This document shows positions 3,119 to 63,494 of a stretch of DNA of 64,000 nucleotides, piece after piece. A program made the position numbers and the translations under genes. The DNA comes from Arenicellales bacterium (lineage in GTDB: Bacteria > Pseudomonadota > Gammaproteobacteria > Arenicellales > Poriferihabitantaceae): positions 2,573,617 to 2,637,616 of the forward strand of contig OY843749.1 in assembly GCA_963693025.1 (NCBI GenBank), given 5' to 3'. Below the pieces are notes generated by a model that saw nothing but the letters and a program-made list of their open reading frames with translations, searched no databases and was not told where the DNA came from. Numbering within the stretch: the stretch's first letter is position 1; each line of letters begins with the position of its first letter.

Positions 3119-4387
3119 CTAAACCGCTTTGGTGAATTCGGGATAGGCTTCGATGCCGCAGTCAGCCAAGTCCATGCCGGCCAGTTCATCCTCTTCCTTG
3201 ATGCGGATGCCGACGACCAACTTGAGCGCCATCCAGACGACCCAACTGGTTGCAAATACCCAGACGAATATGGTCGCCGCGCCTGCCAACTGGCCGGTAA
3301 AGGTGGCGTCGTCGTTGGTGAGCGGCACGAGTAGCAAGCCGAGCAGCCCGCAAGTGCCATGCACCGAGATGGCGCCGACCGGGTCGTCGATTTTCAGTTT
3401 GTCCAGAAAGACCACGCTCACCACCACCAGCAGGCCGCCGGCGGCGCCGAACAAGGTCGCTTGCAGGGCGCCGGTGGTTGACGGCTCTGCGGTAATCACC
3501 ACTAACCCGGCGAGGGCGCCGTTGAGCAGCATCGTCAGGTCGGCCTTGCCATAGAGCAAGCGGGCGAGTACAAGCGCAGCGAGCGCGCCGGCGGCGGCGG
3601 CGGCGTTGGTATTGAGAAACACCATCGCCACGGCGTTGGCGCTGGCGATGTCACCGAGTTTCAACACCGAGCCTCCGTTGAAACCGAACCAACCCATCCA
3701 CAGAATCAGTGTTCCCACGGCGGCCAGCGGCATATTGGCGCCGGGCATTGCCTTGGCCGAGCCATTGGCGGCGTATTTCCCCATACGCGGGCCCAGCAAC
3801 AAGACGCCTGCGAGAGCGGCGGCGGCGCCCGCCATGTGAACGATGCCGGCGCCGGCGAAATCGCTGAAGCCCAAATCGCCCAGGCTATACAAGCCCAAAA
3901 CACGGCCACCGCCCCAGGTCCACAAACCCTCCACCGGATAAATGAAGCCGGTCATCACCACGGCAAACGCCAGAAAAACCCACAACTTCATCCGCTCCGC
4001 CACGGCGCCGGAGACGATGGACATGGCGGTGGCGACAAACACCACCTGAAAAAAGAAATCGGCTGAGGCGGCGTAGATCGACCCGCCGGCAAAACCGTTT
4101 TCACGGCCGGCGAAGTCCGCAAGCACGGCGGGAACATCGACCTCGCCGATGCCGTTCAAAAAGTATCCGCCGTCATACATGATGGCGTAACCGCACGCCA
4201 GATACATGATGCAAGAGAGCGCGTATAACGCGACGTTCTTGGTTAAAATTTCGGTGGTGTTCCTTGCCCGCACCAGCCCGGCTTCCAGCATGGTGAAGCC
4301 GGCGGCCATCCACATGACCAGCGCGCCGCACACCAGAAAGTAAAAGGTGTCGAGCGCATACTGAAGATGAAACAGATTGTTTTCCAT
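3119..4387 (-). CDS. amtB: Ammonium transporter
   Basis: Gly/Ala-rich multi-TM protein containing WFGFNGGS and AISVHGTCG, located downstream of glnK. The ORF extends to 4444; start chosen at MENNLF (ATG at 4387). Confidence 0.92.
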   Translation of the reverse strand: MENNLFHLQYALDTFYFLVCGALVMWMAAGFTMLEAGLVRARNTTEILTKNVALYALSCIMYLACGYAIMYDGGYFLNGIGEVDVPAVLADFAGRENGFAGGSIYAASADFFFQVVFVATAMSIVSGAVAERMKLWVFLAFAVVMTGFIYPVEGLWTWGGGRVLGLYSLGDLGFSDFAGAGIVHMAGAAAALAGVLLLGPRMGKYAANGSAKAMPGANMPLAAVGTLILWMGWFGFNGGSVLKLGDIASANAVAMVFLNTNAAAAAGALAALVLARLLYGKADLTMLLNGALAGLVVITAEPSTTGALQATLFGAAGGLLVVVSVVFLDKLKIDDPVGAISVHGTCGLLGLLLVPLTNDDATFTGQLAGAATIFVWVFATSWVVWMALKLVVGIRIKEEDELAGMDLADCGIEAYPEFTKAV

Positions 4388-4447
4388 GGCGTAACTCGTC
4401 AACTCATAGTGAATAGAATAACGTGAATTAAGCGCACGCAGCACGCG

Positions 4448-5256
<809 letters not shown>

Positions 5257-5423
5257 GGGTTCTACGATGTGGTTTGGTGGTTTGAGCCGGGAATGAGTTC
5301 GCCGGGGAGGCGGGTTAATGTCATCCGCTCGGGCAATTTTTCAGGGCGGCTTTTATATCAAAAAGCGGGGTTTAACGCAACCCAATCACCCGCGACAGGC
5401 TGATGCGAAAAATCCCAACCACC

Positions 5424-5688
5424 CGTCATTCTCGAGCGTTAGTGTCCGTTGCCGCCGCGCTTTTTCTTTTAAGCGGCGGCTTACGGACACTTACGTCCTC
5501 GGGAATCTCCCTAAGACTGGCACGGGCTTTGTTGAAATTCACGGTAGCCTTAGGGAGATTCCCGAAGGCGATGAAAAATCCGCCCGGAGCGGATTTTCGC
5601 GTAGCCCGAAGGGTTTGTATCAGGGATGATACAAACAAAAATATGGTCGCCTAGCGGCTCCCTATTTTTCTATCGTTCGAGAATGACG
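5424..5688 (+). mobile_element. MITE-like TIR element, long form (265 bp, with nested about 57-bp module)
   Basis: Left end CGTCATTCTCGAGCG at 5424 and right end CGTTCGAGAATGACG at 5674-5688 (15-bp TIR, 1 mismatch). Hairpin 1: GTGTCCGT..GCCGCCGC / GCGGCGGC..ACGGACAC. Hairpin 2: GGGAATCTCCCTAAG / CTTAGGGAGATTCCC. Confidence 0.85.
5580..5636 (+). repeat. Nested two-hairpin mini-module inside the MITE
   Basis: CCGCCCGGAGCGGATTTTCGCGTAGCCCGAAGGGTTTGTATCAGGGATGATACAAAC is absent from short-form copies. It is flanked by AAAAAT on both sides. Confidence 0.75.
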
Positions 5689-6412
5689 GAATGGGGAGCG
5701 CCTTCGCCCGCCACCGCCGCGCTTCGGTTGGGCTCATCACCAGCGGGCGGTAAATCTCGACTCGGTCGTGGTCGGTCAGCACCCAGTCGAGCGGACGCTC
5801 AACCCCGAAAATGCCGACCGGCGTCTCCGCCAGATTGAGGCGCGGAAACTGGCGCAGCACGGATGAAGCGCGAATCGCCTGCTCAATGGTGGCCGGCGGG
5901 CTCAGCTCCAGTTGCTCGACCACCTGCCGCTCCGGTAGCGCATAGACCACCTCCGCGCTAATTTGTTCCGGGCGGCGGGGGTTGCCGTGGACTTGACGGG
6001 CGCGCTTGACGAAGGAATCGACCATCGAATCGGCGATGTGTTTGAACACCGGACCGACCACCGCGCCGGTCAGCGCGCTGGAAAAATCAAAGCGCAGGTC
6101 GAGCGCAATCCGGCATGCGCCGGGCTGCAGCGACTTGAATTCCCAGACGCCGGACAACTCGCTGAACGGACCATCGAGCAGCGTCATTTGGGTCTGCTCA
6201 AAAGGCGTCAACCGGTTGCGCGTGGTGAACGATTGGCTGACCCCGCGAAACGCGATATGCACGCGCGCGACCACCTCGCGCTCGCCCCGCTCGAGCACTT
6301 CGGAGGCGCCGCACCACGGCAGAAACTGCGCGTAGGATTCTATATCGTTGACCAGCGAGTACATCTCCTCGGCGCTGTGCATGACCAGCGCCGAACGCGC
6401 GATGGTATACAT
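5651..6412 (-). CDS. In-frame fusion of RatA-like SRPBCC protein (YfjG) and RnfH (YfjF) ubiquitin-fold protein
   Basis: The N-terminal half ([34 protein letters not shown]...) resembles RatA. The C-terminal half ([15 protein letters not shown]...DRVEIYRPL) resembles RnfH. There is no stop and no start codon between the halves. The last about 12 codons and the stop lie inside the MITE at 5424-5688. Confidence 0.8.
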
Positions 6413-6977: not shown

Positions 6978-7102
6978 GCGCGGTTTGCCGCGGCGCCGGG
7001 GGCGCGGAAAAACGCCAAATCGCGCCATTTTGAGCGGATTTCCCACCCATTTCGCCGCGGCTTGCCATTCCCGCGCAGGGTGTGTTAGCATCGCCGCTCC
7101 AT

Positions 7103-9039: not shown

Positions 9040-9492
9040 CTAGGTTTCAAGGCGCGGCTCTCCGGCAAGGTATGACCGCCCCGGATTGACATTGAATGTT
9101 TTCATAATGGCGGTGCGCCCCAGCAGCATCCGAAACTTCATCGAGTTGCGGTTGGTGAGGGTGATTTCAATCTCCTTGTTGAACGCGCCAATCACCACCG
9201 GCGTGCGGATGACCACCCGGTTTTCCTTGCCGCCGCCGGAGTTGGTCACCCACCGGCTTTCAACAATATCGGCGACGCATTGGTTGCCGGGTCCCCGCTC
9301 GCCCTTGGCCGTAAACAACTCAAAGCGAACCCGGCGCACCCCGCCCTCGTCAAATTCCTCCATCCACACGGTATCCAACGCCGAAGTCCGCGCCCCGGTA
9401 TCCACCTTGGCCCGAATCCGCCCAACCCCAAGCCCCGGCAACGCCACCCACTCACGCCATCCGAGCAAAGGTTTGGGTTTTCGGGTGGTCAT
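9040..9492 (-). CDS. Retropepsin-like / DUF785 putative protease commonly paired with rimK
   Basis: 150 aa containing AKVDTGARTSAL, an aspartic-protease-like DTG motif. Lies immediately upstream of rimK on the same strand. Confidence 0.7.
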   Translation of the reverse strand: MTTRKPKPLLGWREWVALPGLGVGRIRAKVDTGARTSALDTVWMEEFDEGGVRRVRFELFTAKGERGPGNQCVADIVESRWVTNSGGGKENRVVIRTPVVIGAFNKEIEITLTNRNSMKFRMLLGRTAIMKTFNVNPGRSYLAGEPRLET

Positions 9493-9513
9493 TGGCAGGC
9501 GAGTTGATTAATC

Positions 9514-10857
9514 TCAGCCCCCACCGCCGAGATAACTCTCCATCGAATCGTCCATCGCCTCAAGCCACGGCGTGTGATGCGCCGGTTGCATGTTTCCGCT
9601 CATCAGCGAGCGGTAGGCGTTGTTGCGAAACCCCATGATGTCTTCGTGTTTGTGGTGCTCCCATTGCATGAAGGTTTGGTTGACCGCCTCGACATCGAAA
9701 CTCGGATAATCGGTCGGCTCAAGCAACTCCTTCACGTAGTCGCCCTGAAACCAAATCATCTGCTCGTCGTTCTCCAATGTTTCTTCGCGCCGCCGCCACG
9801 CCGCGCTGTGTTTGCGCATCTCATCGAGCGCCGGCAGGCTGAGCCGCCCGAGCATGTAATCGCGCGCATACCACGCCTGCGCGTCGAACATGTTGAAAGT
9901 GTAAAACTGGTCCTGCATTCCGAGATACATCAGTTTCGGATTGTCCTCCCAGAAAACTCCCTTATACAAATTCAACGGCCACAGCCGGTTGGTGGTTTGC
10001 AATCGCAACGCATCCGGCAAGAACGGAAAGTGGTGCAAGTAACCGGTGCACAGGATAATCGCGTCAACCTCCGCGCTCGTGCCATCTTTGAAGGTCGCGG
10101 TGTTGCCGTCCACCGAAGTCAACAGCGGCACTTCCCGCCAGTTGTCGGGCCAGTGAAAACCCATCGGCGCGGTGCGGTGACTGCAGGTTATCGACTTCGC
10201 GCCATACTTGTAGCACTGCGAGCCAATGTCCTCGGCGGAATAACTGGTGCCGATAATCAGGATGTCCTTGCCCTTGAACTCAAGCGCATCGCGGAAGTCA
10301 TGCGCGTGCAACACGCGACCGTTGAAGGTGTCGAAGCCGGCGAAGTGCGGCGCGTTGGGCACCGAAAAATGCCCGTTGGCAACCACCACATAGTCAAACT
10401 CTTCGCTCGACACCGCGTCATTTTTCAGGTCGTGCGCGGTGACCGTAAACCGCCCGCTGTCATCCGCATAAGCAACCTCGCGCACCGCCGTGCCAAGCCG
10501 CATATAACGGCGCACATCCGCCTTCTTCACGCGGCCAAGCAGATAGTCGGCGAGCACCGCGCGCGGCGGATAGGAGGCAATCGGTCTGCCAAAGTGCTGC
10601 TCAAACGTATAGTCGGCGAACTCCAAACACTCCTTGGGCCCGTTCGACCAAAGATAGCGGTACATACTGCAATGCACCGGCTCGCCAAACTCGTCCAACC
10701 CGGTGCGCCAGGTGTAATTCCACAAGCCGCCCGGCTCGCTCTGTTTTTCATAACAAACAATGTCGGGAACCTCCGCCCCGCTTTCCCCGGCGGCGGCAAA
10801 CGCACACAACTGCGAAATCCCGCAAGGTCCCGCGCCGATGATTGCAACTCGAGTCAT
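9514..10857 (-). CDS. tmm: Flavin-containing monooxygenase, trimethylamine monooxygenase-like
   Basis: 447 aa. Dinucleotide sites IIGAGPCG and [10 protein letters not shown], plus the FMO motif [11 protein letters not shown]. Neighbours a tdm-like gene. Confidence 0.85.
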
Positions 10858-14120: not shown

Positions 14121-14160
14121 CCTCGTCATTCAAGCCCCTTACTTCGTCATTCCCTACTAT
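14121..14160 (+). repeat. Stutter of MITE outer terminus (TCGTCATTC x2 before the real left end)
   Basis: cctcgtcattcaagcccctt acttcgtcattccctactat precedes cgtcattctcgagcg at 14161. Confidence 0.7.
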
Positions 14161-14361
14161 CGTCATTCTCGAGCGTTAGTGTCCGTTTGTCGCCGCGCTT
14201 TTTCTTTTAAGCGGCGGCTTACGGACACTTGCGTCCTCGGGAATCTCCCTAAGATTGGCACGGGCTTTGTTGAAATTCACGGTAGCCTTAGGGAGATTCC
14301 CGAAGGTGATGAAAAATATAGTCGCTGCCGCTCCTTATTTTTCTATCATTCGAGAATGACG
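14161..14361 (+). mobile_element. MITE-like TIR element, short form (201 bp)
   Basis: Left end CGTCATTCTCGAGCG at 14161 and right-end variant CATTCGAGAATGACG at 14347-14361. Both hairpins are present. Confidence 0.85.
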
Positions 14362-14606
14362 AAGTGGTGGGGAATGACGAGTGTGGTTGAATGGTGGGTG
14401 TGGGTTGAAACTCGGGTTGCTTGCGCTGTTTTTGGGCGTAATCGCTTGATTACACTAACTTTTCCAATCCCACACAAAACAAATCCCCCCTCACCCAGCC
14501 CGGAATTGAGTTGCGGAGAGGGCGGGGCGGTTGTAGTATTGGGGGTGATACCAACGAGGTCCGGCTGTTTTCGGGGGCGGCTCGGACGAGAACGGAGGAG
14601 AACGCG

Positions 14607-29258: not shown

Positions 29259-29301
29259 CAAAAACACCCAACAAAAACCACAACCTCGAAAACAACAACT
29301 T

Positions 29302-29512
29302 CGTCATTCTCGAGCGTTAGTGTCCGTTAGTCGCCGCGCTTTTTCTTTTAAGCGGCGGCTTACGGACACTTACGACCTCGGGAATCTCCCTAAGATTGGC
29401 ACGGACTTGAACAAAGCCGTTGCGAGCTCAGCGCCAACCTTATGGAGATTCCCGAATCGAAGAAAATATGGTCGCCTAACGGCTCCCTATTTTCTACCGT
29501 TCGAGAATGACG
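29302..29512 (+). mobile_element. MITE-like TIR element (211 bp, divergent hairpin-2 loop)
   Basis: CGTCATTCTCGAGCG at 29302 and CGTTCGAGAATGACG at 29498-29512. The right arm of hairpin 2 is CTTATGGAGATTCCC. Confidence 0.85.
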
Positions 29513-29521
29513 GGCATAACT

Positions 29522-29718
29522 CGTCATTCTCGAGCGTTAGTGACCGTTGGCCGCCGCGCTTCTTCTTGCGGCGGCTTACGGACACTTGCGTCCTCGGGAA
29601 TCTCCCTAAGACTGGCACGGGCTTTGTTGGAATTCACGGTAGCCTTAGGGAGATTCCCGAAGGCGATGAAAAATATAGTCGCTGGCGCTCCTTATTTTTC
29701 TATCGTTCGAGAATGACG
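29522..29718 (+). mobile_element. MITE-like TIR element, short form (197 bp)
   Basis: CGTCATTCTCGAGCG at 29522 and CGTTCGAGAATGACG at 29704-29718. Separated from the preceding copy by GGCATAACT. Confidence 0.85.
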
Positions 29719-29728
29719 GGGTTGGGGA

Positions 29729-29758
29729 CTCCCTATTTTCTACCGTTCGAGAATGACG
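29729..29758 (+). repeat. Solo right end of the MITE
   Basis: CTCCCTATTTTCTACCGTTCGAGAATGACG with no matching left part. Confidence 0.8.
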
Positions 29759-29789
29759 GAATAACCCCCAAAACAAAGGCGGCAACGGC

Positions 29790-34150: not shown

Positions 34151-35062
34151 ATGATAAAACAACGCACCCTCAAAAACGTCATCCGCGCGACCGGCGTTGG
34201 CTTGCATACCGGCGGCAAAGTCTATCTCACCCTGCGCCCGGCGCCGGCGGACACCGGCATCATCTTCCAGCGCGTCGATTTGGAGACGGTGGTCGATGTC
34301 CCCGCCAAGCCGGAAAATGTCAGCGACACGCGGCTTTCCACCACGCTGGAATTGGACGGCGTCAAAATCTCCACGGTCGAGCACCTGATGTCCGCCTTCG
34401 CGGGCTTGGGCATCGACAACGCCTATGTCGAAGTCAGCGCGCCCGAAGTGCCGATCATGGACGGCAGCGCTGGTCCGTTCGTGTTCCTGCTGCAATCCGC
34501 CGGCATCTGCGAGCAAGAACAACCCAAGCAATTCATCCGCATCAAAAAACCCCTGCAAATCGCCGACGGCGACAAGTGGGTTAAATTCGAGCCGTTCAAC
34601 GGCTTCAAGGTGTCGTTCGCCATCGACTTCGAGCATCCGATTCTGCAGAACTCAACGCAAGTCGCGTCGGTGGACTTCTCCACCACCTCATTCGTCAAAG
34701 ACGTCAGCCGCGCGCGCACCTTCGGTTTCATGGAAGACCTGGAAGCATTGCGCAACGCAGGCTTGGCGCAAGGCGGCAGTTTCGACAACGCCATCGTGCT
34801 GGACTCATTCCACATTCTCAACAACGACGGCTTGCGCTACAAGGACGAATTCGTCAAACACAAAGTCCTAGACGCCATCGGCGACCTCTACCTGCTGGGC
34901 CACCCCCTAATAGGCGCCTTCAGCGCCCACAAATCCGGCCACGCCCTCAACAACCGCCTGCTACGAAAACTAACCGCCGACCGCTCGGCCTGGGAGTTGG
35001 TCTCCTACGAAGACGAATCCAAAGTACCCATCGCCTTTGCTCGGACTGTGGCGGAGGTTTGA
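34151..35062 (+). CDS. lpxC: UDP-3-O-acyl-N-acetylglucosamine deacetylase
   Basis: [21 protein letters not shown]... and [13 protein letters not shown]. Confidence 0.95.
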
Positions 35063-35073
35063 GCGACCAACTT

Positions 35074-35104
35074 CGTCATTCTCGAATGGTAGAAAATAGG
35101 GAGC
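35074..35104 (-). repeat. Solo right end of the MITE (reverse orientation)
   Basis: CGTCATTCTCGAATGGTAGAAAATAGGGAGC. Confidence 0.8.
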
Positions 35105-35112
35105 CGCAACTT

Positions 35113-35375
35113 CGTCATTCTCGAATGATAGAAAAATAAGGAGCGATAGCGACTATATTTTTCATCACCTTCGGGAATCTCCCTAAGACTACCGTGAATT
35201 CCAACAAAGCCCGTGCCAACCTGAGGGAGATTGCGCGTATCGTCCCTGATACGCGCCCTTCGGGCTACGCGAAAATCCGCTCCCGGCGGATTTTTCCCGA
35301 GGACGCAAGTGTCCGTAAGCCGCCGCTTAAAAGAAGAAGCGCGGCGGCAACGGACACTAACGCTCGAGAATGACG
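35113..35375 (-). mobile_element. MITE-like TIR element, long form (263 bp), nested module at a different internal site
   Basis: CGTCATTCTCGAATG at 35113 and CGCTCGAGAATGACG at 35361-35375. Here the module sits between hairpins 1 and 2, instead of between hairpin 2 and the right end. Confidence 0.85.
35233..35289 (-). repeat. Nested two-hairpin mini-module, variant with compensatory stem changes
   Basis: The stem is GCGCGTATC/GATACGCGC here versus GTTTGTATC/GATACAAAC in the other three copies: three paired substitutions. Confidence 0.8.
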
Positions 35376-35860
35376 GCGGGGTCGGCACACTTCGACAAAT
35401 TAAGTAACGACTCCCTCAACGGCGGATAATCAACCGCCTCCGCCAATTGCACAATTTGTTCGGCGGTTTTTTGTGATAGCCGGAAAGGTTGCCGAGTTGC
35501 CCGTGTCGGCGGGGGCGAGTGGGGTTGGGTTTTTACGGTGATGTGGGTGGCGTGGATGCCGTGTTGTGCGAGGGCTTTTAGCAGGCTGGGAGCGCGGTGG
35601 CGGATTTCGTGGCCGTGAGCGGCGGATTGGACGAATACCACCAGGCGGCCCGAGGTGAATAGCAGGGGCCAACTCGACATAGTCGTCGCATCCATAGTCC
35701 CCACACCCGTAGCCGCCACACCCACAGCCCCCACACCACCTCCCAATTCCGCGCGCCAAAAATCGGCTAAGCGCCGTTGGACATCATGCCCGGCAGGTCG
35801 GTCGCCGCCCGATGGCAGCGCCGCGGTCAGCAATCTGGAAATCGGCTCAAGCCCTTTCAT
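35357..35860 (-). CDS. DUF721 / DciA-like protein (tentative)
   Basis: 167 aa from MKGLEPISRLL (ATG 35860). SGRLVVFVQSAAHGHEIRHRAPSLLKAL resembles the DUF721 core, and the gene sits between lpxC and secA. The last 5 codons (VILER) and the TAG stop are MITE sequence. The remainder of ORF 35357..36265 overlaps the secA start region (35928 onward) on the opposite strand and is rejected. Confidence 0.5.
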   Translation of the reverse strand: MKGLEPISRLLTAALPSGGDRPAGHDVQRRLADFWRAELGGGVGAVGVAATGVGTMDATTMSSWPLLFTSGRLVVFVQSAAHGHEIRHRAPSLLKALAQHGIHATHITVKTQPHSPPPTRATRQPFRLSQKTAEQIVQLAEAVDYPPLRESLLNLSKCADPAVILER

Positions 35861-38636: not shown

Positions 38637-38708
38637 GGGTGGTGTGGATTTTCGCGAAGTTCGGAGGGTTTGTGTCAAGGGCGATACAAACCAAAATTCC
38701 CAACTACT

Positions 38709-38968
38709 CGTCATTCTCGAGCGTTAGTGTCCGTTGCCGCCGCGCTTTTTCTTTTAAGCGGCGGCTTACGGACACTTGCGTCCTCGGGAATCTCCCTAAG
38801 ACTGGCACGGGCTTTGTTGAAATTCACGGTAGTCTTAGGGAGATTCCCGAATCGAAGAAAAATCCGCCCGGAGCGGATTTTCGCGTAGCCCGAAGGGTTT
38901 GTATCAGGGATGATACAAACAAAATATGGTCGCTGACGCTCCCTATTTTCTACCGTTCGAGAATGACG
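38709..38968 (+). mobile_element. MITE-like TIR element, long form (260 bp)
   Basis: CGTCATTCTCGAGCG at 38709 and CGTTCGAGAATGACG at 38954-38968. Nested module at 38865-38920. Confidence 0.85.
38865..38920 (+). repeat. Nested two-hairpin mini-module
   Basis: Same sequence and same insertion point as 5580-5636, flanked by AAAAT. Confidence 0.75.
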
Positions 38969-38981
38969 GGTATTTATAACT

Positions 38982-39178
38982 CGTCATTCTCGAGCGTTAG
39001 TGACCGTTGCCGCCGCGCTTCTTCTTTTAAGCGGCGGCTTACGGACACTTGCGTCCTCGGGAATCTCCCTAAGATTGGCACGGGCTTTGTTGAAATTCAC
39101 GGTAGCCTTAGGGAGATTCCCGAAGCGAAGAAAATATGGTCGCTGACGCTCCCTATTTTCTACCGTTCGAGAATGACG
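38982..39178 (+). mobile_element. MITE-like TIR element, short form (197 bp)
   Basis: CGTCATTCTCGAGCG at 38982 and CGTTCGAGAATGACG at 39164-39178. Spacer to the previous copy is GGTATTTATAACT. Confidence 0.85.
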
Positions 39179-39261
39179 GGGTTGTTGTTTTTGGTTTGTT
39201 ATTTTTGGTTTGTTGTTTGTTGCTGGTTTGTTTTATGTTTGTCGTTAGGCAGTAAGAAACA

Positions 39262-42210: not shown

Positions 42211-43662
42211 ATGAGCACTACCGAAAGAGACCTGGCGACGCTGGTTCAGCGTGAATACAAAGAAGGTTTTGTGACCGACATCGACGCCGACACGCTGCCG
42301 CCCGGCTTGGATGAAGATGTCATCCGCGCCATTTCATCCAAGAAGGGCGAGCCTGAATTTATGCTTGAATGGCGACTGGAAGCGTATCGGCGCTGGCTTG
42401 CGATGGCGCAGCCGCAGTGGGCGCAAGTGCACTATCCGCCCATCGATTATCAAGCCATCAGTTACTACTCCGCGCCCAAGCAGGTAGAGTTGCTGGACAG
42501 CCTCGACGAAGTCGACCCGAAACTGCTCGAGACTTACGAAAAACTCGGTATTCCCATCGACGAGCAGAAGACGCTGGCGGGCGTCAAGGTGGCGGTGGAT
42601 GCGGTGTTTGACAGCGTGTCGGTGGCGACCACTTTCAAGAAAACGCTGTCCGAAGCGGGCGTGATTTTTTGTTCGTTCTCCGAGGCGGTCGCGGATTTTC
42701 CCGAACTGGTGCGACGCTATCTCGGCTCGGTGGTGCCGCCGGGCGACAATTATTACGCGGCGTTGAACTCGGCGGTGTTCAGCGACGGCTCATTCGTCTA
42801 TATCCCCAAGGGCGTGCGCTGCCCAATGGAATTGTCCACCTACTTCCGCATCAACGCGATGAACACCGGGCAGTTTGAGCGCACGCTAATCGTCGCCGAC
42901 GAGGACAGTTATGTCAGTTACCTCGAAGGATGCACCGCGCCGATGCGCGATGAAAATCAGTTGCACGCGGCGGTGGTTGAACTAGTGGCGATGAAGGGCG
43001 CGCAGATTAAATATTCCACGGTGCAGAACTGGTATCCCGGCGACGAGCAGGGCAGGGGGGGGATTTACAACTTCGTCACCAAGCGCGGCGCGTGCCGCGG
43101 GGATGGCGCCAAGATTTCATGGACGCAAGTGGAAACCGGCTCGGCAATCACCTGGAAATATCCCAGCGTGCTGCTCGAAGGCGACAACTCCATCGGCGAG
43201 TTCTACTCGGTGGCGCTGACCAACAACTACCAACAAGCCGACACCGGCACCAAGATGGTGCACATCGGCAAGAACACCGGCAGCACCATCATCTCCAAAG
43301 GCATCTCCGCGGGCCATGGCCAGAACGCCTACCGCGGCCTGGTCAAAGTAATCGCCGGCGCCGAAAACGCGCGCAACTATTCGCAATGCGACTCGCTCCT
43401 GATGGGCGACCAATGCGGCGCGCACACCTACCCCTACATGGAAATCAAAAACCCAACCGCCGTAGTAGAACACGAAGCCACCACCTCCCGCATAGGCGAA
43501 GACCAGTTGTTCTACTGCCGCCAACGCGGTCTGTCGGAAGAGGATGCGTTGTCGATGATTGTCAATGGGTTTTGTAAGGAAGTGTTTAAGGAGTTGCCGA
43601 TGGAGTTTGCGGTTGAAGCGCAGAAGTTGCTGGGGATTAGTTTGGAGGGGGCGGTGGGGTGA
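42211..43662 (+). CDS. sufB: Fe-S cluster assembly scaffold SufB
   Basis: 483 aa. ...[13 protein letters not shown]... and ...[24 protein letters not shown]... are typical of SufB. Confidence 0.95.
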
Positions 43663-43695
43663 TGGGTTTCTTAACGCGACCAACAACAACAACGC

Positions 43696-43893
43696 CGTCA
43701 TTCTCGAGCGTTAGTGTCCGTTGCCGCCGCGCTTTTTCTTTTGCGGCGGCTTACCGGACACTTGCGTCCTCGGGAATCTCCCTAAGGTTGGCACGGTCTT
43801 TGTTGGAGTCCACGGTAGCCTTATGGAGATTCCCGAATCGAAGAAAATATGGTCGCCTGTCGGCTCCCTATTTTCTACCGTTCGAGAATGACG
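43696..43893 (+). mobile_element. MITE-like TIR element, short form (198 bp)
   Basis: CGTCATTCTCGAGCG at 43696 and CGTTCGAGAATGACG at 43879-43893. Lies directly after the sufB stop. Confidence 0.85.
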
Positions 43894-44004
43894 GGGTTGT
43901 GGAATTTGTGATGGAGGGTGGGAGTTGTTTGTTTAGTTTGGATGGGGCGGTTGGTTAGCGACCGCGTGATTGTTATTTTTGCTTCGACATCAAGAGAGAA
44001 AACG

Positions 44005-44976
44005 ATGGCTTATACATTTTTAAATTTAGCGCGTGATGTGCTGAAAGACGCACCTACCCCGCTTGCCTATGTTGAAATCTGGGAACAAGCAAAACAGAGC
44101 GGATTGGCTCAGAAACTCAACACGCAAGGCGCGACACCGCAGGCGACGCTGGGTGCAAGGCTCTCAACTGATATTCTTCACAACAAAGATGACTCGATAT
44201 TTGTTCGAATTGGCAGGAGACCGCAACGATATTTTTTGAAAAACCGTTTGCACGAAATCGATGCGAACGCCATACCCAAATTAGATGAATTGAATGGTGC
44301 AACTACTGCGAAAACAGTAGGCTATGAGGAAAAAGACTTACACCCGCTACTGGCATATTTTGCATATACCAACGATAACTTTTCGGGGCAAAGGCAAATT
44401 TACACCAAAACGATCAAGCACCAAAGGACGAGGGTGAGAGCACTCAGGGAGTGGTTGCATCCTGATATGGTGGGCGTATATTTTCCTTTTGAAGACTTGG
44501 AAAAAAGCGTAATTAAGTTGAGCGGATCTCTTAATTCCAACTCCGTTTTTCAACTGTTCTCGTTTGAATTAAAACGAAGCATAGACAGAGGCAATTACCG
44601 AGAATATTTTTTCCAAGCGGTGTCAAATTCATCCTGGGCGCATGAAGGCTATCTTGTGGCCGCGGAAATATCGGGAGACGATGAACTCCGAAGAGAACTC
44701 GGGCGGCTCACCAATGCATTTGGTATCGGTGTGATTCATTTGAACGTTAAAGACATCGCCGCTTCCGACGTGCTATTCAGGGCGAGCACTAAAGCAGAAT
44801 TGGACTGGGAGACGATTAACAAGTTATGCACGGTGAACGAAGATTTTGCGTCGTTTATTAATCGGCTGAACACCGATTTTGGCGCAGGCCAAATTCATCA
44901 AACAGAATACGATGCGATTATTACGGACCCGGCCACTTATGTTCGGGAGAAACTTAAAATAGATGCGGTTGAATAA
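44005..44976 (+). CDS. HARE-HTH-like winged-helix domain fused to PD-(D/E)xK-like nuclease domain (uncharacterised)
   Basis: 323 aa from MAYTFLNLARDVL. The N-terminal about 80 aa (TPQATLGARLSTDILHNKDDSIFVRIGRRPQRYFLK) fit the HARE-HTH pattern. The C-terminal half has EEKDLHP / WLHPDMVGVYF / LFSFELKRS, which is E...PD...ExK spacing. AT-rich relative to the flanks. Confidence 0.6.
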   Translation: MAYTFLNLARDVLKDAPTPLAYVEIWEQAKQSGLAQKLNTQGATPQATLGARLSTDILHNKDDSIFVRIGRRPQRYFLKNRLHEIDANAIPKLDELNGATTAKTVGYEEKDLHPLLAYFAYTNDNFSGQRQIYTKTIKHQRTRVRALREWLHPDMVGVYFPFEDLEKSVIKLSGSLNSNSVFQLFSFELKRSIDRGNYREYFFQAVSNSSWAHEGYLVAAEISGDDELRRELGRLTNAFGIGVIHLNVKDIAASDVLFRASTKAELDWETINKLCTVNEDFASFINRLNTDFGAGQIHQTEYDAIITDPATYVREKLKIDAVE

Positions 44977-44997: not shown

Positions 44998-45135
44998 ATG
45001 CTAACCATCAAAAACCTACACGCCACCGTCGACGACAAACCCATCCTCAACGGCATCAACCTCACCATCAAAGCCGGTGAAATCCACGCCGTTATGGGTC
45101 CCAACGGCTCCGGCAAAAGCACGCCGGCAAGGTGA
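44998..45135 (+). pseudogene. sufC: sufC 5-prime fragment, copy 1 (45 codons then TGA)
   Basis: [42 protein letters not shown] then PAR*. Homology to sufC (47728) ends at about 45128. Confidence 0.9.
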
Positions 45136-45145
45136 AGCGTAAAAA

Positions 45146-45997
45146 ATGAAAACCATAGCCACAATTAATTTCAAGGGCGGGGTCGGCAAGACCACCACTA
45201 CTTGGTGTTTGGGGGATGTGTTGTCAACGCAGCCAAATTCGACTGTGTTGCTGGTCGACTTGGATGCGCAAGCATCGCTGACTGATTCTCTGGCGCTTCT
45301 GACTGATATTGATGACTTTCGATACTGGAAAGAAGCAAGAGAAACAAACGCTCAAACAACATTTGCGGTGCTGCAAAAATTCTTAACGGCGGAAAAAGGG
45401 TTTGATTTTCAACCCGGCGACAACTACATCTACAAATTGAAAGAAGGGTTTCATTTCATTCCTTCCACCGCCGACCTGTATTGGATGAGTTTAAATTCTT
45501 TTGACCCTGAAAAGGGAAGAGTGTTTGTCAGGCGTTTGCTTGAGAAAATCGAAAACTCCGCTGACCTGCCAAAATATGACTATGTTATTTTTGACTGTCC
45601 GCCATCGTTCACAACGCTCTCTTACAGCGTTTGCACCTGTTGCGATTTGATTTTGTTGCCGGTCAATCCGGACTTTTTTGCGGCGCGAGGTGTTGAAATA
45701 CTGCTAACCGGGCTCAAAGAACGAATTGAAGCGCGCCCGCTGCCGCAGGTGGCAGTTTTTGCAAACCGGGTAAAAACTTGGCGGCGGCCGACAAAATTAT
45801 CGAGACAATGGATTGCTGATGTGCAGGATGCTTGCGCAGAGATGAGGAGCAGATGGGGCATTGATGTGCGTTATCTGGACGCGTGGATCCCGGACCGCGC
45901 CGCGATACGCGATGCGATACCAAGCCGCAATACCCCGCGCAGACATTTTCGTGATTTCATCAATCTTTGGGAAGAAGCGGGAGGTAAATTGAAATGA
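45146..45997 (+). CDS. ParA/Soj-family ATPase (283 aa)
   Basis: Deviant Walker A INFKGGVGKTTTT, LLVDLDAQAS, and Walker B DYVIFDCPPS. The start lies 10 nt after the stop of sufC fragment 1. Confidence 0.85.
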   Translation: MKTIATINFKGGVGKTTTTWCLGDVLSTQPNSTVLLVDLDAQASLTDSLALLTDIDDFRYWKEARETNAQTTFAVLQKFLTAEKGFDFQPGDNYIYKLKEGFHFIPSTADLYWMSLNSFDPEKGRVFVRRLLEKIENSADLPKYDYVIFDCPPSFTTLSYSVCTCCDLILLPVNPDFFAARGVEILLTGLKERIEARPLPQVAVFANRVKTWRRPTKLSRQWIADVQDACAEMRSRWGIDVRYLDAWIPDRAAIRDAIPSRNTPRRHFRDFINLWEEAGGKLK

Positions 45998-46482
45998 CAG
46001 ATGACAATTTTTGGGGTGACAAAGCGGAATACATTCAGAAGTTAGCCAGTGAGGTGGCTGGGCTGAAGGGCGTGGTGCAAGATGTTTCACAACAAATCAG
46101 GCGCATTGAGCGGCGCATTGATTTAGTCCTGCCCGAAAAGCCCCGGGAAAAAGGGCGAAAGACCCCCGTCAACGGCGGGCGTCGCCCGGCGAAAGCGCCG
46201 ACCATGAGTGAAATCGAAGCGCGTCAAACCATTAAAAGGTTGACGGATAAACTTCACGAGCGCGGCACGATGGAATCCGTTCAAGCGGAATTGCGCAGTA
46301 TGACGGTGAAGCATGGACTGACACCCATCGCGCGCGAGTTGGGCATGACCAACACCGCGCTGCCGCCCAAGACCGAACTGGTGCTGAACATCATCACCCG
46401 GCTCCGCCAAAGCGTAATGCTGACCGAAAACATCCGTAAGATGTCCCGCGTTGCCGAAGAGGAAGAACATTTTGGAAACTAA
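45994..46482 (+). CDS. Hypothetical 162-aa protein, translationally coupled to the ParA-like gene
   Basis: ATGA overlap with the upstream gene. It has an N-terminal coiled-coil-like segment, a basic linker ([23 protein letters not shown]) and a C-terminal segment ([38 protein letters not shown]) resembling a helix-extension-helix (SAP/Rho-N-like) motif. No family recognised. Confidence 0.55.
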
Positions 46483-46486
46483 CCCC

Positions 46487-46672
46487 ATGCTAACCATCAA
46501 AAACCTACACGCCAACGTCGACGACAAACCCATCCTCAACGGCATCAACCTCACCATCAACGCCGGTGAAATCCACGCCGTTATGGGTCCCAATGGCTCC
46601 GGAAAAAGCACGCTGGCGAATGTGCTGGTGGAGCGCGGCCAGTATGAGGTGAGCGGTGGGGCGAGCCAATGA
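46487..46672 (+). pseudogene. sufC: sufC 5-prime fragment, copy 2 (61 codons then TGA)
   Basis: [58 protein letters not shown] then ASQ*. Its stop overlaps the cytochrome c ATG (ATGA at 46669). Confidence 0.9.
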
Positions 46673-47127
46673 AAAAGCGGACAACTATCGGTCTGACCGC
46701 CGTGCTTGTCGCGCTCGGCGCCGGTCTTTTTGTTTTCCGCGGCGGAAGTTCCCCGGAAAATCCGAGTGCCGTTGGCGGGCGGTGGTATTCAGCGGCGATG
46801 GTTTCCTCCGGCGCGCGTATATTTGCGGCGAATTGCGCTTCCTGTCATGGCGCGTCCGGCGAAGGCGCGGCGAATTGGCAACTGCGCGGCGCCGACGGTT
46901 TTTTCCCGCCGCCGCCGCTCAACGGCAGCGGCCATACCTGGCACCATCCACTGAGCGCGTTGCGCGCCACCATTGAGCGCGGCGGCACCGCTTTCGGCGG
47001 CAAAATGCCGGCGTTCAAGGGGCAACTCGACCGCCGCCGGCAAGACGCCGTCATCGCCTATATCCAGAGCCTCTGGCCCAGCGCAATCTACACGGCATGG
47101 GCGCAACAAATCGAACGCATTAATTGA
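46669..47127 (+). CDS. Mono-heme c-type cytochrome with N-terminal signal/anchor
   Basis: 152 aa. Hydrophobic N-terminus [18 protein letters not shown], heme motif CASCH, distal Met candidate GGKMPAF. Confidence 0.8.
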
Positions 47128-47152
47128 TGCGGCATCTTTTTGCTTAACTGTG

Positions 47153-47701
47153 ATGAAAGACACCAAAGAAAAACTATCGCCGCTTAGCGTCGCGTTGCAC
47201 TGGACGGTCGGCCTCTTTGTGATCGCCATGCTCGCGCTCGGTTTGGCGATGGAATCCTATGAGTTGTTTTTCCTATACCCGGTTCACAAGTCCATCGGCA
47301 TTTTATTGTTCGTTGTGATTGTATGGCGCGTATACTGGCGTTTGTTCAACGGCTGGTTGCCGCCGCTTGGAAATTACCCGCATTGGCGGCGGATGTTGGC
47401 GCGCGCTTCGCATTGGGTTTTACTTGCCGGCACATTGTGGATGCCGTTATCGGGGATGCTGATGTCCGCGCTCGGCGGGAGCGGATTGACGGTGTTCGGC
47501 ATTGCGTTGCTGGCGGCGAACCGCGACGCCAACGGCAAGATAATCGCTTACAACGAGTCGCTGGCGCATTTTGCGCACACGCTGCATGCGCTCGGCGGTA
47601 AAATTTTAATCGCGGTGATTACGCTGCATGTTTGCGCGGCGCTTCATCATCATTTCATTGAAAAAGACAACGTGCTGCGCAGAATGCTGGCGCGCCTTTA
47701 A
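47153..47701 (+). CDS. Cytochrome b561 family membrane protein (CybB-like)
   Basis: 182 aa with 4 predicted TM segments and conserved His positions (SVALHW, PVHKSIG, ASHWVLL, HTLHALG...HHHFIEKDNVLRRM). Start chosen at ATG 47153. Confidence 0.78.
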   Translation: MKDTKEKLSPLSVALHWTVGLFVIAMLALGLAMESYELFFLYPVHKSIGILLFVVIVWRVYWRLFNGWLPPLGNYPHWRRMLARASHWVLLAGTLWMPLSGMLMSALGGSGLTVFGIALLAANRDANGKIIAYNESLAHFAHTLHALGGKILIAVITLHVCAALHHHFIEKDNVLRRMLARL

Positions 47702-47727: not shown

Positions 47728-48483
47728 ATGCTAACTATCAAAAACCTATCCGCCAACGTCGACGGCAAGCCCATCCTCAACGGCATCAACCTTGAAATAA
47801 AAGCCGGCGAAATCCACGCCGTTATGGGTCCCAACGGCTCCGGTAAAAGCACGCTGGCGAATGTGTTGGCGGGGCGGGAAGGGTATGAAGTGACCGGCGG
47901 AAAGGTGCGGTATAAGGAGCGGGATTTGCTGGAGATGGCGCCGGAGATTCGGGCGCGGGAGGGGGTGTTTTTGGCGTTTCAGTATCCGGTTGAGATTCCG
48001 GGGGTGACCAATCTTTACTTGCTCAAGGCGTCGCTCAATGCGATTCGCAAGCATCGTGGCGATGACGAGTTGAACGCGGTGGAGTTTCTTAAACTGATTA
48101 AGGAAAAGGCCGCGCTGGTGAAAATGAGCGAGGAGTTTTTGTATCGCTCGATTAACGAAGGCTTTTCCGGCGGCGAGAAAAAGCGCAACGAGATTTTGCA
48201 GATGGCGCTGCTTGAGCCGACCTTGAGCGTGCTCGATGAAACCGATTCGGGGCTGGACATAGACGCGCTGAAAGTCGTCGCCGACGGCGTCAACACGTTG
48301 CGCGGCGACGACCGCGCGATGCTGGTGGTGACGCATTACCAACGCTTGCTGGACTACATCGTGCCGGACTTCGTGCATGTGCTGCACGGCGGGCGCATCG
48401 TGCGCTCCGGCGACAAATCGCTGGCGCTGGAACTGGAGCGCGAGGGCTACGGCTGGCTGGCGGAGCAGGCGGCGGCGCCATGA
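47728..48483 (+). CDS. sufC: Fe-S cluster assembly ATPase SufC (intact copy)
   Basis: 251 aa. Walker [10 protein letters not shown], signature FSGGEKKR, Walker B LSVLDETDSGLD. Confidence 0.95.
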   Translation: MLTIKNLSANVDGKPILNGINLEIKAGEIHAVMGPNGSGKSTLANVLAGREGYEVTGGKVRYKERDLLEMAPEIRAREGVFLAFQYPVEIPGVTNLYLLKASLNAIRKHRGDDELNAVEFLKLIKEKAALVKMSEEFLYRSINEGFSGGEKKRNEILQMALLEPTLSVLDETDSGLDIDALKVVADGVNTLRGDDRAMLVVTHYQRLLDYIVPDFVHVLHGGRIVRSGDKSLALELEREGYGWLAEQAAAP

Positions 48484-57045: not shown

Positions 57046-57063
57046 CCTCGTCATTCACCACTT
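57046..57063 (-). repeat. Stutter copy of the MITE outer terminus
   Basis: cctcgtcattcaccactt immediately precedes cctcgtcattctcgaatg. Confidence 0.65.
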
Positions 57064-57066
57064 CCT

Positions 57067-57266
57067 CGTCATTCTCGAATGATAGAAAAATAAGGAGCGA
57101 CAGCGACTATATTTTTCATCACCTTCGGGAATCTCCCTAAGGCTACCGTGAATTTTACCGAAGCCCGTGCCAACCTGAGGGAGATTCCCGAGGACGCAAG
57201 TGTCCGTAAGCCGCCGCTTAAAAGAAGAAGCGCGGCGGCAACGGACACTAACGCTCGAGAATGACG
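57067..57266 (-). mobile_element. MITE-like TIR element, short form (200 bp), reverse
   Basis: CGTCATTCTCGAATG at 57067 and CGCTCGAGAATGACG at 57252-57266. Confidence 0.85.
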
Positions 57267-57274
57267 AGTTGTAG

Positions 57275-57305
57275 CGTCATTCCCGAACGGTAGAAAATAG
57301 GGAGC
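57275..57305 (-). repeat. Solo right end of the MITE (reverse)
   Basis: CGTCATTCCCGAACGGTAGAAAATAGGGAGC. Confidence 0.8.
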
Positions 57306-57315
57306 CCCCCAACTT

Positions 57316-57580
57316 CGTCATTCTCGAATGATAGAAAAATAAGGAACGACAGCGACTATATTTTTGTTTGTATCATCCCTGATACAAACCCTTCGGGCTA
57401 CGCGAAAATCCGCTCCCGGCGGATTTTTCATCACCTTCGGGAATCTCCCTAAGGCTAGCGTGGACTTTCAACAAAGCCCGTGCCAGTCGTAGGGAGATTC
57501 CCGAGGACGTAAGTGTCCGTAAGCCGCCGCTTAAAAGAAAAAGCGCGGCGACCAACGGACACTAACGCTCGAGAATGACG
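57316..57580 (-). mobile_element. MITE-like TIR element, long form (265 bp), reverse
   Basis: CGTCATTCTCGAATG at 57316 and CGCTCGAGAATGACG at 57566-57580. Nested module at 57366-57422. Confidence 0.85.
57366..57422 (-). repeat. Nested two-hairpin mini-module
   Basis: Reverse complement of the 5580-5636 module at the equivalent insertion point. Confidence 0.75.
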
Positions 57581-57604
57581 AAGTTGTGGTGGTGGCGGCG
57601 GCGG

Positions 57605-57629
57605 CGGACACTAACGCTCGAGAATGACG
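57605..57629 (-). repeat. Solo left end of the MITE (reverse)
   Basis: GGACACTAACGCTCGAGAATGACG, ending 7 nt before the infA stop codon. Confidence 0.8.
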
Positions 57630-57635
57630 AGTAAA

Positions 57636-62944: not shown

Positions 62945-62978
62945 CTCGTCATTCCCAAGTACTCGTCATTCCCAAGTA
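62945..62978 (+). repeat. Two 17-bp tandem stutter copies of the MITE outer terminus (CTCGTCATTCCCAAGTA x2)
   Basis: Read directly. A third CTCGTCATTC begins the full element at 62979/62981. Confidence 0.8.
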
Positions 62979-62980
62979 CT

Positions 62981-63180
62981 CGTCATTCTCGAGCGTTAGT
63001 GTCCGTTGCCGCCGCGCTTTTTCTTTTAAGCGGCGGCTTACGGACACTTACGTCCTCGGGAATCTCCCTAAGACTGGCACAGGCTTCGCCAAAGTCCACG
63101 CTAGCCTTAGGGAGATTCCCGAAGGCGATGAAAAATATGGTCGCTAGCGCTCCCTATTTTTCTATCGTTCGAGAATGACG
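62981..63180 (+). mobile_element. MITE-like TIR element, short form (200 bp)
   Basis: CGTCATTCTCGAGCG at 62981 and CGTTCGAGAATGACG at 63166-63180. Confidence 0.85.
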
Positions 63181-63190
63181 AAGTTGGGGG

Positions 63191-63221
63191 CTCCCTATTT
63201 TTCTATCGTTCGAGAATGACG
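63191..63221 (+). repeat. Solo right end of the MITE
   Basis: CTCCCTATTTTTCTATCGTTCGAGAATGACG. Confidence 0.8.
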
Positions 63222-63232
63222 GGTATATAACT

Positions 63233-63433
63233 CGTCATTCTCGAGCGTTAGTGTCCGTTGCCGCCGCGCTTTTTCTTTAAGCGGCGGCTTACGGACACTT
63301 GCGTCCTCGGGAATCTCCCTAAGACTGGCACGGGCTTTGTTGGAATTCACGGTAGCCTTAGGGAGATTCCCGAAGGCGATGAAAAATATGGTCGCCTGTC
63401 GGCTCCCTATTTTTCTATCGTTCGAGAATGACG
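63233..63433 (+). mobile_element. MITE-like TIR element, short form (201 bp)
   Basis: CGTCATTCTCGAGCG at 63233 and CGTTCGAGAATGACG at 63419-63433. Confidence 0.85.
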
Positions 63434-63443
63434 GGCTTTTTGT

Positions 63444-63475
63444 CGGCTCCCTATTTTCTACCGTTCGAGAATGAC
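63444..63475 (+). repeat. Solo right end of the MITE
   Basis: CGGCTCCCTATTTTCTACCGTTCGAGAATGACG. Confidence 0.8.
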
Positions 63476-63494
63476 GAGGAGTTCCCTTTCTTTA

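Follow-up and report, generated by a model that had tools for sequence, protein, structure and literature searches.

An HrgA/COG2958-family gene with a predicted HARE-HTH and PD-(D/E)xK nuclease architecture lies in a cargo hotspot of the suf operon in an Arenicellales bacterium

Introduction

We analyzed a 64,000-nucleotide stretch of the genome of an Arenicellales bacterium (assembly GCA_963693025.1, contig OY843749.1, positions 2,573,617 to 2,637,616; hereafter the window), in which a foreign-looking gene at 44005-44976 sits between sufB and sufC of the essential iron–sulfur (Fe-S) operon suf. Judged by full-length sequence similarity, this gene is a new member of the HrgA/COG2958 family (formerly DUF511). 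Its product is predicted to be a HARE-HTH winged helix joined to a PD-(D/E)xK nuclease core with invariant catalytic residues, and the sufB|sufC junction that houses it is a hotspot at which Arenicellales-like genomes gain, replace, and lose cargo. The assignment to family and fold, taken by itself, is highly probable. As to function, our best reading is that the gene encodes an exchangeable accessory DNA endonuclease that is probably modification-dependent (type IV-like), to which we give a probability of roughly 0.55; the modification-sensing defence role is what we infer from the architecture and the population behavior.

The family has a history. Laganeckas et al. placed DUF511/HrgA in the PD-(D/E)XK superfamily and described all three active-site motifs, as well as an N-terminal winged helix nearest to the N-domain of RNA polymerase delta and a methylase that is not positionally conserved (PMC3045609), and Steczkiewicz et al. 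listed DUF511/PF04373/COG2958 as a PD-(D/E)XK family of unknown function subject to horizontal transfer (PMC3424549). The prediction of a winged helix plus PD-(D/E)XK nuclease for HrgA/COG2958 therefore dates from 2011-2012. In Helicobacter pylori, hrgA is an alternative gene at a fixed slot, where it replaces a restriction gene and is swapped by homologous recombination (PMC3045609). For fusions of HARE-HTH with endonucleases, a role in distinguishing modified DNA or bases has been proposed (PMC4738411, PMC10853773), with the caution that the specificity of HARE-HTH is unknown (PMC11037411).

The starting point for this work was an annotation made from the letters of the window alone (the original prediction), which read the gene as a HARE-HTH domain followed by a restriction-endonuclease-like nuclease. 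That domain reading is a rediscovery of a known family, as the architecture, the fold assignment, and the habit of "replacement" had already been published. In the literature that we searched, an operon-embedded hotspot at sufB|sufC and near-maximal allele divergence in near-identical backgrounds are not described.

Results

The gene belongs to the HrgA/COG2958 family

The gene and the parts of its product are as follows.

44005..44976, + strand: HrgA/COG2958-family gene (HARE-HTH plus predicted PD-(D/E)xK nuclease), 323 amino acids (aa)
44014..44217, + strand: HARE-HTH winged-helix domain, residues 4-71 (Pfam PF05066)
44320..44790, + strand: predicted PD-(D/E)xK nuclease core, residues 106-262 (secondary structure of the AlphaFold2 (AF2) model, conserved residues, and Foldseek)
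44329-44331, 44464-44466, 44566-44568, and 44572-44574, + strand: predicted catalytic codons for E109, D154, E188, and K190, respectively

The open reading frame (ORF) is intact, beginning with MAYTFLNL and ending with KIDAVE before the stop codon. A longer frame could start from a GTG at 43918, but homologues favor the ATG at 44005. With a GC content of 0.449, compared to 58-67% in the flanking suf genes, the ORF is AT-rich, and the difference is sharper at third codon positions (GC3), where the gene stands at 0.463 and sufB, sufC, and sufD at 0.754, 0.766, and 0.823. The original description of an AT-rich 323-aa ORF is thus borne out, and all the peptides quoted in it are found in the frame.

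At E<=1e-3, a protein search found 5613 relatives. Of the 120 listed, nearly all are ~320 aa long and almost all have HARE-HTH annotated. A profile of the C-terminal region, run against 1.84 billion cluster representatives, matched 1352 clusters, almost all of 300-330 aa and with the domain at about residues 100-320. Because this C-terminal profile finds nearly only proteins of 300-330 aa, HARE-HTH and nuclease form a fixed joint architecture.

The family name comes from full-length homology. In a tblastn search of annotated plasmids, full-length matches are named "HrgA protein" in Helicobacter, Vibrio, Proteus, and Alteromonas, and a Ralstonia "COG2958 family protein" matches over its full length with 34% identity. 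HrgA of Helicobacter heilmannii is 32% identical over residues 1-323, with E 2e-40 by tblastn and 2e-50 by pairwise BLASTP. Pfam gave no C-terminal match for either the window protein or the annotated HrgA/COG2958 proteins; the Pfam copy used apparently does not include PF04373. A Pfam scan of the C-terminal half alone was equally without a match at E<=10. Throughout, the relatives compared here are referred to by locus labels L001-L097, protein labels P0008, P0021, and P0030, and alignment A1.

A winged helix is predicted to be joined to a restriction-fold core

The match to PF05066 scores 45.6 bits, where the cut-off is 25.9 (E 9.7e-12), with residues 4-71 aligned to profile positions 2-63 of 71. 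In the AF2 model, this part forms helices 5-14, 22-32, and 45-59 followed by strands 66-69 and 75-78, which is a winged-helix fold, and in Foldseek searches the N-terminal region matches FoxO, Fur, PerR, and other winged-helix proteins at probabilities of 0.8-0.96.

The AF2 models were built on family alignments, both for the full-length protein (predicted local distance difference test score, pLDDT, 83) and for residues 101-323 separately (pLDDT 85.6, predicted template modelling score 0.84). Both show the alpha-beta-beta-beta-alpha-beta topology of a PD-(D/E)xK core, which runs through helix 109-122, strands 132-136, 155-159, and 183-193, helix 198-209, and strand 214-222. The putative catalytic residues are placed accordingly in the model: E109, in the peptide EEKDLHPLL, lies in helix 1; D154, in HPDMVGVYF, immediately precedes strand 2; and E188-x-K190, in LFSFELKRS, lies within strand 3. 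All four are unchanged in 41 close homologues and invariant in an alignment of 34 sequences (31-66% identity) that includes the annotated HrgA and the COG2958 protein. The same alignment has W150, P153, S186, F203, Q204, and the motif S207-N-S-S-W211 as further invariant residues.

Against solved structures, the C-terminal model finds the restriction endonuclease-fold protein PaqCI first (E 7.7e-3, probability 0.97), and the remaining list, with SgrAI, Cap4, MUS81-EME1, Ecl18kI, NucC, EndoMS, and AspBHI, consists almost entirely of restriction-fold nucleases. With the full-length model, FokI and MspJI are found as well. Among predicted viral structures, four reach E<=1e-3, one of them annotated as an MmcB-like DNA repair protein, and the annotated entries in the viral match list include MmcB-like repair proteins, restriction endonucleases, and a VRR-Nuc protein. 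A winged helix, a nuclease, and a helical tail together account for the whole protein, with a variable linker between HARE-HTH and the nuclease core. In some members (P0021 and P0030, 426 aa, in alignment A1), a second HARE-HTH copy of ~100 residues separates the first from the nuclease domain.

Profile search and structure prediction hence recover both halves of the original prediction: HARE-HTH in the first ~80 residues, with a match above the curated threshold, and an E...PD...ExK restriction-endonuclease fold in the C-terminal half, where topology, matches to nuclease folds, and invariance in 34 homologues agree and the putative catalytic residues are conserved.

The family is sporadic and its genes are solitary

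In a scan of 185,579 species, each represented by one genome, we confirmed 301 relatives (counted as stretches) that are 47-63% identical to the query. Apart from Gammaproteobacteria, they occur in Planctomycetota, Verrucomicrobiota, Chlorobiota, Cyanobacteria, Spirochaetota, Bacteroidota, and Desulfobacterota, a sporadic distribution across many phyla.

We clustered the neighbors within four genes at the 82 loci with a located ORF and found no recurrent family beyond lineage synteny. Pfam and PADLOC scans of the 145 neighbors within two genes likewise gave no dominant family; a few of them are toxin–antitoxin-like (HepT, DUF4160) or belong to AAA_14/DUF4143. A multi-gene system was considered and rejected on these grounds. 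The original prediction had noted that no methyltransferase, specificity subunit, or helicase is near the gene, and none is found among its neighbors, which are secA, argJ, a NUDIX gene, coaE, an Rrf2 regulator, sufB, sufC, sufD, a FeS_assembly_P gene, a Rieske gene, an EPSP-synthase-family gene, and histidine genes. The survey extends this to the family, for which no conserved partner emerges and whose homologues are not consistently housekeeping genes.

Where 80 loci could be compared with their flanks, the nuclease gene is the more AT-rich in 95%, by a mean of 9.9 GC points. The profile is that of a solitary, horizontally mobile accessory gene of foreign composition.

Several placements outside suf were noted. 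At L089 (6001-7424), icd, the nuclease gene, a gene for a 110-aa HNH protein, and clpS-clpA follow one another in this order. At L004, L005, L007, and L088, the nuclease gene is found syntenically upstream of genes for a 620-aa ketoacyl synthase and prfC, with AbiE and Fic genes near it at L004 and L005.

The sufB|sufC junction is a cargo hotspot

The window's slot is delimited by two conserved anchors and contains fragments of both.

42211..43662, + strand: sufB, left conserved anchor (Pfam SUFBD_core, E 5.4e-79)
43933..43957, + strand: short relic of the sufB 3' end, ahead of the nuclease gene (D13, a direct repeat that shares 91% identity with 43637-43658)
44998..45135, + strand: sufC 5' relic 1, a 45-codon ORF at the right edge of the nuclease cassette (repeat family D1; blastn)
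47728..48483, + strand: functional sufC, right conserved anchor (Pfam ABC_tran; 98.4% identical to SufC of L001)

The order sufB, nuclease, sufC recurs in L001, whose nuclease is 94% identical to the window protein, in L002 and L003 (66%), L087 (65%), L094 with protein P0008 (60-61%), L006 (59%), L011 (54%), and L039 (52%). L011 is from an Arenicellales bacterium and L039 from Candidatus Poriferihabitaceae of the same order. GC3 is 44-58% in every suf-embedded nuclease copy and 69-85% in the suf genes. In simple loci, the spacers from the nuclease gene to sufB and to sufC are 22-43 nt, which implies that the nuclease is co-transcribed with the suf operon, and a scan for promoters and terminators gave no signal above shuffled expectation that would point to independent transcription.

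The slot is not reserved for the nuclease. In a single sample, one identical SufB protein is found on three contigs with three different cargoes: a gene for an S-adenosylmethionine (SAM) methyltransferase plus a 53-aa ORF (L093), an HrgA-like gene (L094), and orf183, a sufC relic, and a ParA-like gene (L095). Up to the sufB stop, L093 and L094 share 99.5% identity, and from 3 nt ahead of the sufC ATG they share 97.7%. L092 has only ParA+orf162, a module whose start codon overlaps the stop of sufB. The contents seen across the window, L092-L097, L002, and L011 also include orf288 and cytochrome c plus b561. Among the loci sampled, the HrgA-like gene is the commonest occupant. Loss is also seen. 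The slot of L096 is empty, with 55 nt from sufB to sufC, and the 466-nt spacer of L097 (6453-6918) holds a decayed, internally deleted nuclease gene that reads FIRLGKPNRYFL... and then EQNLHP fused to DYIKKTFKVKT, such that the C-terminal tail follows immediately after the end of HARE-HTH and the first nuclease motif, EQNLHP. The empty site was found by way of SufB homologues; a search of metagenome contigs with two sufB 3'-end patterns gave 0 matches, and that collection evidently lacks the lineage.

In the original prediction, the placement in an Fe-S operon was called unusual. The placement is real, but it is no one-off, since the slot, whose borders are the stop codon of sufB and the start codon of sufC, is a recurrent cargo hotspot in the lineage.

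Single-cassette copies have no flanking direct repeats, no tRNA gene is nearby, and the suf loci are free of integrase and transposase genes, on account of which we rejected transposon-like or site-specific insertion. Homologous recombination in the sufB and sufC flanks is the simplest mechanism that we can infer. The sufB relic, 47 nt upstream of the nuclease start, reads GGCGGTTGGTTAG and is nearer to the sufB end of the L003/L006 type, GGCGGTTGGTTGA, than to the window's own, GGCGGTGGGGTGA; since it fits these other genera better, the nuclease cassette may have come with flanking DNA of its donor. Directly after the gene, where the original prediction had placed a sufC relic, the 45-codon ORF 44998-45135 is 89% identical over 131 nt to the real sufC start at 47728. 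A 74-nt sufC relic (6990-7063) lies in the same place in L095, ahead of the ParA gene, and an 881-bp insert that distinguishes L002 from L003 is bordered by a duplicated 36-bp piece of the sufC start. Judging from the sufC relics, cassettes may have been added through recombination in which one end was homologous and the other illegitimate, or through a single crossover of circular DNA.

Alleles are exchanged within near-identical backgrounds

The nuclease genes do not share the history of their operon. Between L006 and L039, SufB, SufC, and SufD are 99.6, 99.2, and 98.6% identical and the nuclease proteins only 50%, and between L002/L003 and L087, SufB is ~99% identical and the nucleases 63%. 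Related pairs of loci have 95-100% nucleotide identity up to the sufB stop codon. In a sliding-window comparison of L006 and L039, identity is 100% up to that codon, 35-70% across the ORF, and 97-98% from ~30 nt before the nuclease stop; L003 and L087 show the same border pattern. Vertical inheritance within the suf operon, as six related loci had suggested, was rejected in view of the incongruent identity matrices and the sharp borders.

Between the closest pair, the window and L001, the nuclease genes differ by 18 non-synonymous and 9 synonymous codons, compared to 1 and 30 for sufB and 7 and 20 for sufD. Residues 1-85 hold 16 of the 18 non-synonymous differences but only 4 of the 9 synonymous ones. 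Family-wide, mean pairwise identity is 32% for HARE-HTH and 46% for the nuclease core. On these alignments, the predicted DNA-recognition module evolves fastest, while the predicted catalytic core is held constant.

Discussion

A probable modification-dependent nuclease

We propose that the protein is a metal-dependent DNA endonuclease targeted by its HARE-HTH winged helix, and that its target would most likely be DNA with a base modification that the host lacks. This would make the protein a type IV-like nuclease, serving restriction or defence, for which no cognate methyltransferase is needed. Indeed, none is linked to the gene: neighbor clustering at the 82 loci, the close-neighbor scans (only 4 DNA methylases among 145 genes), and the surroundings of the gene in the window agree on this. 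A nuclease without a protective methylase must spare the DNA of its host, and dependence on a modification absent from the host is therefore the most economical solution. Transcription would be by read-through from the Rrf2-regulated suf promoter, and gain, replacement, and loss would result from homologous recombination for which the highly conserved 3' end of sufB and 5' end of sufC serve as anchors. Rapid evolution of the N-terminal domain may reflect shifting target recognition; allele turnover and a fast-evolving reader domain fit an immunity gene.

Several observations weigh against this reading. The function of HrgA/COG2958 is a computational prediction for all members, and allele swapping proves exchange rather than selection for defence. 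Defence-gene enrichment around the family is modest among the 145 neighbors, only four of which are N6/N4 DNA methylases, and the family was not found in the phage collection. Most H. pylori strains carry hrgA beside an active GATC methylase (PMC2588503), and simple cleavage of Dam-type methylated DNA is therefore not general. In searches with the protein, NCBIfam gave no meaningful match, PADLOC (PADLOC-DB v2) no family at E<=1, the PDB no sequence match at E<=10 either for the single protein or for a 41-sequence profile, and Foldseek no solved structure that reaches E 1e-3. The PADLOC result is in line with the original view that the gene cannot be assigned to a named defence system, a view that gives way insofar as a named family, HrgA/COG2958, exists and is reached by full-length homology.

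Alternative explanations

The borders of the slot would also be expected of a selfish, free-standing homing-type endonuclease that cuts the sufB-sufC junction or rival alleles and spreads as the break is repaired from the carrier copy, which would itself create the hotspot. Such an enzyme would account for hrgA "replacing" a restriction gene in H. pylori, and it agrees with the precise insertion of single genes between conserved neighbors (sufB|sufC, icd|clpS in L089, and upstream of the ketoacyl synthase and prfC genes in L004 and L088), the sharp borders between presence and absence, the AT-rich composition, the lack of integrase and flanking repeats, and the sufB 3' and sufC 5' relics on either side of the window copy. 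However, nuclease-free cargo (SAM methyltransferase, ParA+orf162, orf183, and cytochromes) uses the same slot with the same borders, and the hotspot is therefore independent of the HrgA-like protein. Members at different loci and in different phyla are moreover still 47-54% identical, DNA-binding domain included, which is unexpected if each recognized its own site, and the decayed copy in L097 persists unreplaced. We consider homing very unlikely, and we are just as doubtful about a combined picture in which the slot is integrase-free and operon-embedded, its cargo is kept expressed by the essential operon and exchanged via the ultra-conserved flanks, and the nuclease itself promotes exchange by cutting incoming or resident DNA at or near the junction. 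Homing-like activity, if real, would explain the restriction-gene-replacing behavior of hrgA in Helicobacter.

It is similarly improbable that the protein has been domesticated for a role other than defence, be it as a nuclease of DNA repair or recombination or as a transcription factor akin to the N-domain of RNA polymerase delta, tied to suf and to stress from Fe-S demand. The gene does have the same orientation and spacers of 22-43 nt within an essential operon in several genera of one order, the nearest solved relative of the N-terminal domain is RpoE delta (PMC3045609), and conservation of the protein is very high, with at least 47% identity across phyla. Yet it is dispensable and polymorphic, as seen from the empty L096, the remnant in L097, and the other cargo in L092, L093, and L095; near-identical hosts carry alleles only 50-63% identical; the majority of the family is found outside suf contexts; and the invariance of the putative catalytic residues argues against a purely regulatory role. 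Also unlikely, though slightly more probable, is that the gene encodes an ordinary restriction endonuclease against which an unlinked methyltransferase protects by modification, or an effector nuclease of abortive infection that is activated by a signal. The prototype hrgA adjoins hpyIIIM (PMC2588503, PMC3045609), the four methylases among the close neighbors and a Dam-like methylase 4 kb away in L006 would suit the former, and effector nucleases (Cap4, NucC) are among the fold matches. A methylase is, however, nowhere positionally conserved, as was also noted in PMC3045609, where it is further reported to be inactive in several hrgA-carrying H. pylori strains, and the neighbor and domain scans detected neither a partner gene for sensing or signaling nor a ligand-binding domain. 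An accessory, probably modification-dependent endonuclease is thus the reading that we retain.

Comparison with known systems

The closest parallel is HrgA itself, with full-length homology (32%, E 2e-50), a length of ~320 aa, a winged helix plus PD-(D/E)XK, and the same invariant motifs. Like hrgA of H. pylori, the gene is an alternative occupant of a fixed chromosomal slot with exchange by homologous recombination (PMC3045609). The H. pylori slot, however, adjoins a methyltransferase and has a type II restriction gene as its alternative occupant, whereas the present slot is inside an essential Fe-S operon (sufB|sufC) and takes unrelated cargo or strongly diverged alleles of the one family. 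The host differs as well, being an Arenicellales-like gammaproteobacterium.

By architecture alone, the protein is comparable to the HARE-HTH–endonuclease fusions, including the Dnd-associated HARE-HTH-REase, in that a HARE-HTH reader is combined with a restriction-fold nuclease and discrimination between modified and unmodified DNA is predicted (Aravind and Iyer 2012, as cited in PMC4738411; PMC10853773). These fusions lie within restriction-modification or Dnd neighborhoods (PMC4738411, PMC10853773), whereas this gene is solitary. The type IV enzymes DpnI, HhiV4I, and Mrr-like proteins likewise combine a winged-helix reader and a PD-(D/E)xK-type nuclease in one polypeptide without a cognate methyltransferase, but HARE-HTH differs from their readers in having an extra helix in the HTH (PMC11037411). 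Our PDB sequence searches detected no sequence similarity to them. In Streptococcus pneumoniae, DpnI is an alternative cassette at a fixed locus, and its domain order is the reverse of that of the HrgA-like protein. The free-standing homing endonuclease genes seg and mob of phage T4 are also AT-rich single genes wedged between conserved genes with sharp presence/absence borders. Unlike these, the family is absent from the phage collection and shares its slot with nuclease-free cargo, and cleavage of the insertion site is here only hypothesized.

With this gene, HrgA/COG2958, a family of >5,000 proteins by our protein search and with a long-standing fold prediction, gains a well-supported member, and the suf context provides its clearest population-genetic signature so far. 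Alleles of ~50% identity in backgrounds of ~99% identity, borders at the gene ends, and a DNA-binding domain that changes fastest are the pattern expected of an immunity gene, which makes an assay for modification-dependent nuclease activity worthwhile. An essential Fe-S operon that exchanges foreign cargo between two of its genes without a recombinase is, moreover, an unusual kind of hotspot.

Further features of the locus

Between sufB and the nuclease gene, the window contains one copy of a repeat that resembles a miniature inverted-repeat transposable element (MITE).

43679..43900, no strand assigned: MITE-like repeat of ~210 bp with terminal inverted repeats (repeat families D2, D3, I1, and I5)

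The terminal inverted repeats read CTACCGTTCGAGAATGACGG and CCGTCATTCTCGAGCGTTAG, and there is an internal perfect hairpin of 20 nt. Many intergenic copies exist, often as tandem pairs (38706-39180 and 43679-43900, and approximately 5416-5705, 14160-14371, 29263-29765, 35061-35378, 57058-57632, and 62978-63477). In L003 and L006, the short spacer between sufB and the nuclease gene lacks the repeat.

L006 has a gene for a Dam-like (MethyltransfD12) adenine methylase at 3886-4884, between the NUDIX gene and coaE and 4 kb upstream of the nuclease; it is missing from the window and from L001-L003.

A second sufC 5' relic of 173 nt lies at 46487-46672, such that two relics separate the three cassettes of the window. 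The relics resemble each other, the upstream ribosome-binding region included, more than they do the functional sufC start. The second cassette (45146-46482) is a recurrent module that encodes a ParA-family ATPase (283 aa) and, in an overlapping 162-aa ORF, a protein with no family match. These two proteins are 75% and 65% identical between the window and L001, compared to 98-99.8% for the flanking Suf proteins. The third cassette (46669-47701) carries two cytochrome genes, one for a cytochrome c that has a cbb3-type domain and one for a b561. At the protein level, the window and L001 share just 61% identity in b561, and in L011 a b561 gene of 54% identity (9367-9921) lies between sufB and the nuclease gene.

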